A stretch of 64,000 nucleotides of DNA from Escherichia coli (GCF_009931435.1 NZ_CP043414.1); one strand, 5' to 3'; numbered from the stretch's first letter, positions 14,886 through 22,918 are shown. Notes: generated by a model not told the origin, from the sequence alone. Made by a program: numbers and translations.

Positions 14886-15581
14886 TTACTGCCCGTAATA
14901 GGCATTGGCCCCATGCTTACGCAGGTAATGCTTATCCAGAAGTTCGTTTTGCATCGCAGGAAGCTGCGGCGCAAGCTGGCGCGAGAACAGGCCCATATAG
15001 GCGCACTCTTCGAGTACCACGGCATTATGCACCGCATCGGCGGCGTTATTGCCCCAGGCGAACGGACCGTGAGAATGCACCAATACCGCCGGGATTTGTG
15101 CCGGACTCCTGCCGCGTTCTTCGAAAGTTTCAATGATCACTTCGCCGGTCTGATATTCATATTCGCCGTTAATCTCCGCTGCGGTCATCTGTCGCGTGCA
15201 GGGGATTGCGCCATAGAAATAATCGGCGTGCGTAGTGCCCCAGGCAGGGAGATCCAGCCCGGCCTGTGACCAGATGGTGGCGTGGCGCGAGTGGGTATGC
15301 ACAATGCCACCGATTTCGGCATAGCGACGGTAAAGCGCCAGATGCGTTGGCGTATCGGACGAGGGCTTTTTGCTACCTTCCACCACCTTGCCGCTGGCTA
15401 TCTCAACCACCACCATATCGTCGGCGGTCATCACGTCGTACTCGACGCCGGAAGGCTTAATTACCATCCATTGCCGCGTCTCGTCTACCGCACTGACATT
15501 GCCCCAGGTAAACGTCACCAGATGGTGAGCGGGAAGCGCCAGATTTGCCGCCAGTACGTCGGCTTTCAATCGCTCTAACAT
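14886..15581 (-). CDS. sgbE: L-ribulose-5-phosphate 4-epimerase
   Basis: 231-aa ORF, class II aldolase/epimerase (AraD-like); last gene of the yiaK-sgbE operon. Confidence 0.9.
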
Positions 15582-16435
15582 ATAAATCCAGCCTCCTGCA
15601 TACGCGCTTCAATCCAGCGCCGTGCCTGAATAATCTCCAGCACCGGCTCTTTGGCTTTTTCGGTCCACATCTCAATCAGAAATGATCCGCGATAGTTCAG
15701 TTCATGCAGCGTTTTGAAGATGCCAACGAAATCGACGCAGCCTTCGCCAAACGGCACGTCGCGGAACTGTCCGGGGCTTTGCTCGGTGACTGGCTGGGTG
15801 TCTTTCAGGTGGATGGCGGCGATACGGTCAATGCCCAGTTTCAGTTCGGCGGGAACATCATTGCCCCAGGCGCTAAGGTTGCCGACGTCCGGGTAGACGG
15901 TGAACCACGGCGAGGCGAGCATCTCGTCCCACTTTTTCCATTTGCTGATGGAGTTCATAAACGAGGTATCCATAATCTCCACCGCCAGCATTACTTGTGA
16001 TGCCGCCGCCTGTTCGACAGCCCACGTCAGCCCTTCAGCAAAACGTTGCCGGGTACCTTCGTCATGGTCTTCGTAATAGACGTCGTAGCCCGCCAGTTGA
16101 ATGGTGCGAATACCGAGATCGCACGCCAGATGAATTGCTTTGCTCATGATCTCCAGTGCTCGCTGGCGTACCGCGTCGTCACGGCTACCAAAGGGAAAAC
16201 GACGATGTGCGGACAGGCACATCGACGGGATCCCAACGCCCGTTTCGATCATCGCGGCAACCAGCGAAGTCCTTTGTGCGGCGCTCCAGTCAAGGCGCGA
16301 CAGACGCTCGTCAGTTTCATCCACCGACATTTCGACAAAATCAAAGCCACAGCTTTTCGCCAGCACCAGCCGCTCCGGCCAGGAGAGATCTTTCGCCAGT
16401 GCTTTTTCATAAATCCCTAACGGATGATTACGCAC
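15575..16435 (-). CDS. sgbU: L-xylulose-5-phosphate 3-epimerase
   Basis: 286-aa product from GTG at 16435 ([13 protein letters not shown]...); overlaps sgbH stop by 8 nt; xylose-isomerase-like TIM barrel family. Confidence 0.85.
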
Positions 16436-17090
16436 GCGCGCCTCCCCAGATAGCGTCGATTTGCGCATGGAAGTCGGCCGCCACCTGCGCCGGATTTGCT
16501 GCGCCTGCCAGCGCCCGCCCGGCAATAAACGCTTTCACGCGGATATCTTTAAACAGCGGCAGGTCAGCAGGCGTAATCCCGCCGGTAACGGAAAGCTCAA
16601 GGCCGATATCGGAAAGCGCCTTCATGCGTGCCAGATCGGCTTCGCCCCACTGTTGCCCGCTGGCCTGCGCGTCACGGCCACGATGATAAATGGCCTGCCG
16701 CACGCCAATACGATGCCAGTCGCGGGCGTCGTCCAGCGTCCAGTTACCAAAAAGCTCTATCTGGATTTCACCACCGCAGCGTTGCGCCATCGCGTGGCCT
16801 TTTTCCACCGTCGCGAGCGGTGCGGCGCAGATGATGGTCATCCAGTTAGCGCCTGCACCAAACGCCTGTTGCGCGAGCGTTTCACCCGCGTCGGCGACTT
16901 TCCAGTCAGCAACGATGATTTTGTCCGGGCACTGTTCGCGCAAGGCTTTCACCGCGCCAAGCCCTTCGTTTAAACAGAGAATGGTGCCCGCTTCGACGAT
17001 ATCGACGCTGTCTTTTAACAGCGCAACGTCGCGCTGTGCGGCTTCAAGTGATGAGTGGTCGAGGGCCAGTTGCAGAAGTGGTCTGCTCAT
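16428..17090 (-). CDS. sgbH: 3-keto-L-gulonate-6-phosphate decarboxylase
   Basis: 220-aa ORF; orotidine-5'-phosphate decarboxylase-like family; overlaps lyxK stop (ATGA-type junction). Confidence 0.9.
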
Positions 17091-21446: not shown

Positions 21447-21914
21447 TTAATTCAGCGCCGTTAATGCGACTTTAACCACAACTTTTCGTATCTCAGAGGC
21501 TGTTTGCAGAATACAGCCTGGTCGATGAACATCCTGAGGAAAGAAAATAGCGTAGCTACCCGGTATCATTTCTATAAATGATTCATGTTCACTATCGTGA
21601 TAAAAAATAATATCGCGCTGCTCTAATAGTGATTCGCTGACTTTATTATTTCCTGTATCAATAGCAATGCCGATTTTCTCTTTGCCCCACGCCAGAAATT
21701 GAATATCAATATAGCGACGATGTACTTCCGGGCGATTTTCCTCCGCCGGACGTGTCGTTAAATCGATAATTTGCGCATAAATATTTTTGCCGTCAATTTT
21801 GACAACGCCCGGCTCCAGGACGTTGAAATCAGTGGCGCGCAGAAAATCGAGCGCCTTTTCAATAGCAGCGGGCAAACGGCACGGGTTAGGCTGCGCGATA
21901 TGTCCAAAAATCAT
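21447..21914 (-). CDS. yiaL: YhcH/YjgK/YiaL-family protein (putative sugar isomerase/epimerase)
   Basis: 155-aa ORF; synteny within the yiaK operon. Confidence 0.85.
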
Positions 21915-21925
21915 GGCTTATCTCC

Positions 21926-22918
21926 TTATAACGCCTGGATTTTTGCCCATACGCTATCATCAACGGTAATACCGTTACGGCGGTTTTCTGCCAGCAGGGT
22001 GGTAAATTCGTGGCCGGGTAAGCGAATGGCCTGGTTTTCATCGGCGCGTTCAGCGGTAGTAACATAATCCATGATGCGTTGCAGCTTGGCATCGCGGGTG
22101 GGGCCGTCGATAAGCTTGTCCACTTCAATGGCGATAAAGATTTGCGAAACGCCATATTCGTCGCTGTTATCCTGGGTGACTTCGGCAACGGATGCGCCGT
22201 CGGAAAGGAGAGTAGCGATCATATCCAATACGATCGACATACCGGAACCTTTCCAGTAACCCATTGGCAAAATGCGGCGATTTTTCTCGATTACACCAGG
22301 TTCTTTGGTGAGGTTGCCTTCATCGTCAAAGCCGCCATCGACCGGAAGCTGACGACCTGCAAGGCGGTTAACTTCTAACATGCCGTAGGAAAACATCGAC
22401 ATATCGACCATGGTGATTGGGGTAGAAGGAATGGCGACGATCAGCGGGTTAGTGCCGATGCGACACTCTTTTGCGCCCCACGGCGGCATTACGGCGATGG
22501 AGTTGGTCCAGCAAATGCCAATATAGCCTTTTTCCGCCGCCTGCCAGCCGTAGCTGCCGCCGCGCATCCAGTGGTTGGCATTACGTAGAGCCACCAGACC
22601 AATACCGTGATCGGCAGCCAGTTCAATGGCGCGATCCATCATCTTTTTCGCTGTCAGGTTACCGATCGAACGCTGGGCGTCCCACTGTTCAATTGCGCCG
22701 AGGCTGGTTATACGTTTGGCCTCGGCATCGGGAATGATATCGCCATTACCCAGTTGTTGGATGAAGCGTGGGAAGCGGTTAACACCGTGAGAATAAACAC
22801 CGGATTCGGTGGTGCGGGCGAACATCTCTGCACAGGCATCAGCCGTTTCGCTGTCAACACCGCGTGAAATTAAGACCCGATTAAAGGCTGCTTTTAACTG
22901 CTCAAATGTCACTTTCAT
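21926..22918 (-). CDS. yiaK: 2,3-diketo-L-gulonate reductase
   Basis: 330-aa ORF, Ldh_2 (malate/L-lactate dehydrogenase type 2) family; first gene of the operon, divergent from yiaJ. Confidence 0.9.

Follow-up and report, generated by a model that had tools for sequence, protein, structure and literature searches.

Do two gene clusters that lie end to end on a bacterial chromosome, one for the use of an oxidised sugar acid and one for the cleavage of a glycoside, form a single metabolic unit, or do they only share a place in the genome? This question is raised by a stretch of 64,000 nucleotides (nt) from Escherichia coli (NZ_CP043414.1), named here the window, in which the genes yiaK to sgbE occupy positions 14886-22918 (all positions are those of the whole stretch). 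Beyond sgbE lies a cassette encoding a GH127 glycosidase, a glycoside-pentoside-hexuronide (GPH) symporter, and an AraC-type regulator. A preliminary description of this DNA proposed a complete operon with gene boundaries suggestive of translational coupling and hinted that the operon and the cassette might be metabolically linked. Very probably this region is the standard yiaK-S operon of E. coli (yiaKLMNO-lyxK-sgbHUE), and the GH127 cassette is a separate module. The operon is already known, and its gene boundaries are those of E. coli K-12, bar the length of the yiaL-yiaM spacer.

Identity and regulation of the yiaK-S operon

The operon consists of nine genes (protein lengths in amino acids, aa):

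22918-21926, minus strand: yiaK, 3-dehydro-L-gulonate 2-dehydrogenase (2,3-diketo-L-gulonate reductase), 330 aa; NCBIfam NF009750, 654.8 bits (cut-off 316)
21914-21447, minus strand: yiaL, YhcH/YjgK/YiaL (DUF386) family, 155 aa; TIGR00022, 215 bits; 93.5% identity to K-12 YiaL
21339-20866, minus strand: yiaM, TRAP transporter small permease, 157 aa; NF007374, 322 bits (cut-off 260)
20863-19586, minus strand: yiaN, TRAP transporter large permease, 425 aa; NF011634, 919 bits (cut-off 800)
19573-18587, minus strand: yiaO, TRAP periplasmic solute-binding protein, 328 aa; TIGR00787 (DctP), 369 bits; 95.1% identity to K-12 YiaO
18583-17087, minus strand: lyxK, L-xylulose/3-keto-L-gulonate kinase, 498 aa; 96.6% identity to K-12 LyxK
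17090-16428, minus strand: sgbH, 3-keto-L-gulonate-6-phosphate decarboxylase, 220 aa; NF009831 (UlaD model), 450 bits (cut-off 294)
16435-15575, minus strand: sgbU, L-xylulose-5-phosphate/L-ribulose-5-phosphate 3-epimerase, 286 aa, GTG start; TIGR00542, 520 bits (cut-off 272)
15581-14886, minus strand: sgbE, L-ribulose-5-phosphate 4-epimerase (AraD paralogue), 231 aa; NF009002, 507 bits (cut-off 386)

The complete and intact nine-gene operon of the preliminary description is confirmed. By script, nine minus-strand reading frames are open in 14886-22918, each made up of whole codons from a start codon to a single stop at its end, and their order is collinear with K-12 b3575-b3583. Comparison with K-12 revealed no frameshift across the nine genes; protein identity to the K-12 counterparts is 93.5-99.1%, and the sole difference in gene length is an in-frame deletion of 6 nt (Met-Ser) in yiaK, giving a protein of 330 instead of 332 aa. 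The NCBIfam cut-offs are exceeded by YiaK, YiaM, YiaN, SgbH, SgbU, and SgbE, and subfamily models cover YiaL and YiaO. For LyxK the scores against FGGY kinase models stay below the equivalog cut-offs; its exact sequence is recorded as an E. coli L-xylulokinase. YiaK aligns with PDB 1NXU/1S20 (E 3e-219) with a gap of two residues, and the exact protein is recorded under E. coli as WP_161399854.1/QHP97633.1. The ratio of nonsynonymous to synonymous substitution rates (dN/dS) against K-12 is 0.02-0.12 over the nine genes, i.e., strong purifying selection, which speaks for functional genes over mere open frames. The Rfam scan of the whole window gave no RNA family match inside 14886-23118. A consensus scan found fewer promoter-like sites than in shuffled sequence; terminator-like sites showed no convincing enrichment, and no gene end had one.

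The control region is shared with K-12 as well, both in the divergently oriented repressor gene and in the nearly unchanged promoter region:

23119-23967, plus strand: yiaJ/plaR, IclR-family repressor gene divergent from the operon, 282 aa; 99.6% protein identity to K-12 YiaJ
22919-23118: yiaJ-yiaK divergent promoter/operator region, 200 nt, with three TTGAAAT-type repeats

Over the window, K-12, strain N96, and a B2-type strain, the mean column identity of this spacer is 98%, whereas the operons are far more diverged; two exact TWTTGAAAT sites lie within it. In K-12, YiaJ binds between yiaJ and yiaK, and deletion of yiaJ de-represses the whole yiaK-S operon (PMC6237786). YiaJ was later renamed PlaR and presented, with a description of its regulon, as a regulator of plant-material use, ascorbate and galacturonate being the proposed effectors (PMC6958661). 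A single YiaJ-repressed transcript and a role in the use of 2,3-diketo-L-gulonate/ascorbate have been reported for K-12 only (PMC6237786; PMC6958661), and the steps that follow are carried over from that literature by orthology. One promoter in the 200-nt spacer, repressed by YiaJ/PlaR, would give a nine-gene mRNA. The YiaMNO TRAP transporter would import 2,3-diketo-L-gulonate (oxidised vitamin C), which YiaK would reduce to 3-keto-L-gulonate and LyxK would then phosphorylate. SgbH is expected to decarboxylate the phosphorylated product to L-xylulose-5-phosphate, and SgbU and SgbE to convert this by successive epimerisations into L-ribulose-5-phosphate and D-xylulose-5-phosphate.

The neighbouring GH127 cassette

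Downstream of sgbE the following features are found:

14857-14876: GC-rich hairpin with a 7-bp stem in the 31-nt gap between the convergent sgbE and AraC-type stops; z = -2.4
14039-14854, plus strand: AraC-family regulator of the cassette, outside the operon; Pfam AraC_binding and HTH_18
12413-13813, minus strand: GPH (MFS_2) cation symporter; TIGR00792, 333 bits (cut-off 231), and Pfam MFS_2
10432-12402, minus strand: cytoplasmic GH127 glycosidase, probable beta-L-arabinofuranosidase, 656 aa from an ATG at 12402 with a Shine-Dalgarno sequence; three GH127 Pfam domains

The Pfam matches of the glycosidase cover the catalytic, middle, and C-terminal domains, and the protein matches PDB 4QJY (E 7e-237) and HypBA1 (3WKW; E 2e-152) over its full length. 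Its GE, ExC, and CxCC motifs align with Glu322, Glu338/Cys340, and Cys417/Cys418 of HypBA1, so that the acid/base glutamate, the zinc ligands, and the nucleophile cysteine are all aligned. The best NCBIfam model, aceric acid hydrolase, scores 458 bits, far below its cut-off of 950, and we found no paper on the activity of the E. coli enzyme. In contrast to HypBA1 and 4QJY, the cassette enzyme is a cytoplasmic protein of enterobacteria that comes with a GPH symporter and an AraC-type regulator, and its substrate specificity is a prediction. The predicted role of the cassette is uptake of a glycoside followed by its cytoplasmic cleavage, with L-arabinose as the probable product. Rfam places an naRNA4 (REP-type) element at the cassette boundary (10354-10432), between the GH127 stop and yiaT, and a second copy is present at 55902-55983.

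How did the cassette come to lie beside the operon? In K-12 it is reduced to scars. The 346-nt sgbE-yiaT spacer of K-12 (locus L002, 12783-13128) corresponds to two pieces of window positions 10330-14885. Spacer positions 1-135 match window 14885-14751, comprising the hairpin and the last 104 nt of the AraC-type gene, and are annotated ysaC; positions 136-325 match window 10729-10540, a 3' piece of the GH127 gene, and are annotated ysaD. The two pseudogenes are thus the two ends of a deletion of about 4.0 kb that removed the AraC-MFS-GH127 cassette (MFS, major facilitator superfamily), and a second K-12 deletion of about 210 bp removed the 3' end of the GH127 gene and the REP/naRNA4 element. 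These scars show that the cassette is ancestral and was deleted in K-12, and not inserted in the genome studied here.

The operon does stand directly beside the cassette, as had been described: the AraC-type gene ends at 14854, 31 nt from the sgbE stop. The hint of a metabolic link is not supported. Operon and cassette are convergent, their regulators (IclR-family and AraC-type) are separate, and so are their transporters (TRAP and GPH). No sign of co-transcription or of a shared regulator was found, the two stops being separated by the hairpin, which is kept in K-12 beside the ysaC scar. The hairpin is not followed by a T-tract and was hence not called by the consensus terminator scan; it probably serves the operon and the cassette alike as a 3'-end or terminator structure. 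As to shared regulation, the PlaR-box consensus ATnTGAAACnnnGTTCAnTT gave, with up to three mismatches, 3 matches against 2.3 expected and none in the yiaK or cassette promoter, and the consensus as printed is unable to test co-regulation. The half-site TWTTGAAAT was matched five times against 2.05 expected; the cassette promoter has one of these matches and the yiaK promoter the two mentioned above. Since 7 of 100 shuffles did as well, the count is not above chance.

The distribution of the two units among 5426 complete E. coli genomes does not couple them either. At least 80% of the operon was found in 4818 genomes and the whole cassette in 2313; all four combinations of presence and absence occur. 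About 2,500 or more genomes hold the operon but not the cassette, and 427 hold the cassette but not the operon. The latter were found with a junction probe from Escherichia sp. E1V33, in which ysaA stands directly beside the AraC-type gene; they have lost the 5' part of yiaJ through sgbE and show the order avtA-ysaA-(C-terminal yiaJ remnant)-AraC-MFS. A cross-species scan with the GH127 protein as query, limited to one genome per species, returned 80 loci, and the AraC-type gene accompanies GH127/MFS in 68 of them. In about 31, from at least 13 genera, lyxK-sgbH-sgbU(-sgbE) lies immediately beside the AraC-type gene as in the window; these loci come from Citrobacter, Klebsiella, Raoultella, Enterobacter, Kosakonia, Phytobacter, Lelliottia, Salmonella diarizonae, Pseudocitrobacter, Huaxiibacter, Superficieibacter, Kluyvera, and E. 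whittamii. Another ~21 species have the cassette beside ysaA and/or avtA (16 with ysaA) and neither yiaJ nor any yia gene; in the remaining loci the surroundings of the cassette differ or the sequence is cut short. Adjacency is thus conserved across species, which fits an inherited avtA...selB synteny equally well. Together with the independent losses, adjacency across genera therefore speaks for old shared synteny of this region and not for dependence. The comparisons point to independent modules that occupy an ancient common chromosomal slot and have been gained and lost separately.

Gene junctions and alternative readings

The spacing of the genes was as follows (negative values are overlaps):

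yiaK to yiaL: +11 nt
yiaL to yiaM: +107 nt
yiaM to yiaN: +2 nt
yiaN to yiaO: +12 nt
yiaO to lyxK: +3 nt
lyxK to sgbH: -4 nt (shared ATGA)
sgbH to sgbU: -8 nt (GTG start)
sgbU to sgbE: -7 nt

Every number previously given for these junctions (the shared ATGA, the 8-nt overlap with a GTG start, the 7-nt overlap, and the 2-nt gap) was reproduced exactly by script. Seven of the eight distances are the same in K-12, the exception being the yiaL-yiaM spacer, which is 117 nt there, and the GTG start of sgbU is found in K-12, N96, and the B2 strain. In the corresponding ~63 kb of K-12, dppF/dppD, tag/yiaC, selB/selA, and insJ/insK likewise overlap by 4 nt and xylG/xylH by 23 nt; stop/start overlaps are widespread among prokaryotes (PMC6728339). 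Given the junctions shared with K-12 and the frequency of such overlaps in nearby operons, the packing of the operon is inherited and ordinary. In a comparison of 30 further species with the catabolic genes, 29 have the 7-nt sgbU/sgbE overlap, lyxK/sgbH overlap by 4 nt in 24 and by 1 nt in 5, and the sgbH/sgbU distance is -8 nt in 13 (with ATG), +2 in 13, and -1 in 4. The ulaABCDEF operon encodes paralogues of SgbH, SgbU, and SgbE (UlaD, UlaE, and UlaF), in the same order and also tightly packed; it differs in having a phosphotransferase system instead of a TRAP transporter, neither a reductase nor a kinase, and junctions of +9 and -1 nt where the window has -8 and -7 nt.

Do these junctions couple translation? 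Their geometry is, as read from the sequence, of the kind that would permit it, and coupling by overlaps and very short spacers has been shown experimentally in bacteria (PMC6728339; PMC10666635). A Shine-Dalgarno sequence precedes each of the eight internal starts by 5-10 nt, inside the preceding gene. The predicted energy needed to open the transcript around each start (positions -18 to +12; local unpaired probabilities over the predicted transcript) was compared with the transcript mean of 10.1 kcal/mol. The yiaO and yiaK starts are among the most accessible (4.1 and 4.4 kcal/mol, 2nd and 3rd percentile), and they look like independent, open initiation sites in this prediction. The starts of sgbH, lyxK, yiaM, yiaL, and sgbE range from 6.6 to 7.8 kcal/mol (15th-27th percentile), and yiaN stands at 10.1 kcal/mol (51st percentile). 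Predicted structural occlusion is confined to the sgbU start (15.1 kcal/mol, 93rd percentile). Some translational coupling in the operon is plausible on this model. It would most likely occur in E. coli at sgbH-sgbU, where a weak GTG start, an 8-nt overlap, and a ribosome-binding site predicted to be occluded coincide; at yiaM-yiaN and the other overlaps it is possible.

The same junctions could reflect genome compaction only, with each cistron initiating independently at its own Shine-Dalgarno sequence and no meaningful coupling. Such a sequence is recognisable at every internal start, predicted accessibility is average or better at six of the eight, the sgbH/sgbU distance varies freely among genera, and the paralogous ulaD/ulaE junction has a gap in place of an overlap. 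This explanation is nevertheless somewhat doubtful, since the sgbU start is a GTG within the predicted most occluded 7% of the transcript, the sgbU/sgbE overlap is retained in all but one of the other species, and overlaps of this kind are known from the experiments cited above to couple translation. The remaining points concern the operon as a whole, and they weigh against its being an ordinary functional yiaK-S unit independent of the cassette. The 107-nt yiaL-yiaM spacer (21340-21446) contains a strong stem-loop:

21366-21400, minus strand: 14-bp stem-loop, with no U-tract after the stem

The spacer folds at -34.2 kcal/mol (z = -3.78), and none of 200 shuffles folds as well; the hairpin is conserved in K-12 and N96 and absent from the B2-type spacer. 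It might divide the operon post-transcriptionally. The first enzyme, YiaK, could in turn be impaired. Its deletion, at about 22394-22402, is the slippage-type loss of one ATGTCG unit that turns VDMSMSMF into VDMSMF, and it falls inside a stretch of 25 residues that is otherwise identical in all compared homologues, down to about 90% overall identity and from E. coli to Salmonella, Pseudocitrobacter, and Huaxiibacter. The operon might thus be intact as sequence and yet crippled at its first step, with the pathway cryptic in this strain. We regard this as unlikely, given that the 330-aa form recurs on three sequence backgrounds (two further variants besides that of the window, one of them annotated as E. 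albertii) and at least 50 contigs, that the dN/dS of yiaK against K-12 is 0.03, and that the YiaK score is twice the NCBIfam cut-off. The recurrence suggests repeated slippage or a common allele.

The conserved adjacency also speaks for the cassette and the operon belonging together in some way: with about 31 species of at least 13 genera sharing it, and with both units plausibly serving the use of plant-derived sugars (PMC6958661 for PlaR; the GH127 fold for the cassette), there may be a loose functional association. A stronger version would make the two units, neighbours since before the enterobacterial genera diverged, a plant L-sugar island of two modules with cross-talk, in which a released L-pentose (L-arabinose) shares L-ribulose-5-phosphate with the operon via SgbE, or in which one unit regulates the other. 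Besides the adjacency, its supports are the AraD-type 4-epimerase activity assigned to SgbE, the retention by the GH127 enzyme of the catalytic and zinc-binding residues of beta-L-arabinofuranosidases, the description of PlaR for plant-material use (PMC6958661), and one TATTGAAAT half-site in the cassette promoter. This proposal is very improbable, however. The two clusters converge, and neither depends on the other for a regulator or a transporter of its own; all four combinations of presence and absence occur in E. coli, the cassette-only genomes among them; ~21 other species have the cassette in the same slot and no yia genes; and the half-site count is not above chance. The operon also encodes neither L-arabinose isomerase nor ribulokinase, and in E. 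coli AraBAD is encoded elsewhere in the genome. If the proposal were true, the Sgb enzymes could be supplied or induced by L-arabinose or L-ribulose-5-phosphate that the cassette makes, and the deep allelic lineages of the operon in E. coli could reflect selection in a plant L-sugar niche. The preferred reading is still that of a standard yiaK-S operon with the cassette as a separate module.

Operon forms in E. coli and related bacteria

Is the operon a core feature of E. coli, as had been stated? Its presence in most of the surveyed genomes supports this; however, 430 genomes gave no match at all, and about 1054 carry a ten-gene version. The best match of the window operon among the 5426 genomes is 97.6%; 3914 genomes match at 90-95% (most at ~94%) and 1054 at 80-90% (~88%), the six listed examples of the latter group being annotated with a DUF4862 gene. 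The window allele is, by these comparisons, rare and deeply diverged. Its synonymous divergence (dS) from K-12 is 0.15-0.33 (92-96% nucleotide identity), compared with 0.07 (98.4%) for yiaJ, and flanking yiaJ, yiaT, and yiaU are ~98% identical. With the operon at ~94% to most E. coli, an origin from an Escherichia species other than E. coli was considered and ruled out: the xyl region of the window is up to 99.6% identical to an E. coli genome, and divergence along the window is mosaic, at 89-99% identity per kb. The impression is of a locus pieced together from deep allelic lineages. In strain UTME-12 (locus L086), most of the operon and the cassette have been lost through an IS1-associated deletion.

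In B2-type E. coli (e.g., PBP8) the operon has ten genes, with a 306-aa DUF4862 gene (locus L004, 13561-14481) between yiaL and yiaM. This form, found also in E. whittamii, shares with the window the same nine genes, their order, yiaJ, and the promoter; it differs by the extra gene and by the synonymous saturation of yiaM and yiaN (dS ~2). The nine-gene form is probably derived, because E. whittamii and all 26 loci of other genera that include yiaL have the DUF4862 gene after it. No DUF4862 remnant was found in the window (tblastn, best E >1), and alignment of the yiaL-yiaM spacer gave no clear homology to the B2-type flanks beyond the yiaM ribosome-binding site, so a simple deletion is, from sequence, indistinguishable from a segment replacement. 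E. whittamii Sa2BVA5 (locus L006, 7546-7552) precisely lacks sgbE: its sgbU runs directly up to the hairpin and the AraC-type gene, and the other genes of the ten-gene operon are retained.

A further arrangement is the Klebsiella-type yiaKLX1X2PQRS operon (so named in the literature; layout in loci L007-L081), which has yiaK, yiaL, lyxK, sgbH, sgbU, and sgbE in common with the window. Its junctions are similar (yiaK/yiaL +10 or +11, lyxK/sgbH -4 or -1, and sgbU/sgbE -7 nt), and the cassette adjoins sgbE. In contrast to the window, the YiaMNO TRAP transporter is missing, and a yiaL-lyxK interval of ~2.4 kb holds the DUF4862 gene and further sequence, which is presumably the MFS gene yiaX2.

Two other differences from K-12 were observed in the window. 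A segment of ~1 kb between aldB and yiaW (5679-6702) is absent from K-12; it contains a hicA-like gene (5896-6081, 61 aa) and a hicB-like gene (6098-6508, 136 aa), a toxin-antitoxin pair, and HicA/HicB genes are annotated in the same neighbourhood in strain N96. At 43496-43534, the IS150 that interrupts the hokA/sokA locus of K-12 is absent, and an intact sok RNA is found at 43418-43569 (Rfam).

The operon finding itself adds little that is new, as it re-describes a characterised operon with the gene boundaries of K-12. Loss of the ancestral GH127 cassette from K-12 accounts for the pseudogenes ysaC and ysaD, and adjacency alone gives no ground for a metabolic link at this locus. The yia operon of E. 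coli exists in several deeply diverged states, with nine genes, with ten genes including DUF4862, or absent altogether, and these forms matter for pan-genome and metabolic-model annotation of the use of ascorbate and 2,3-diketo-L-gulonate.

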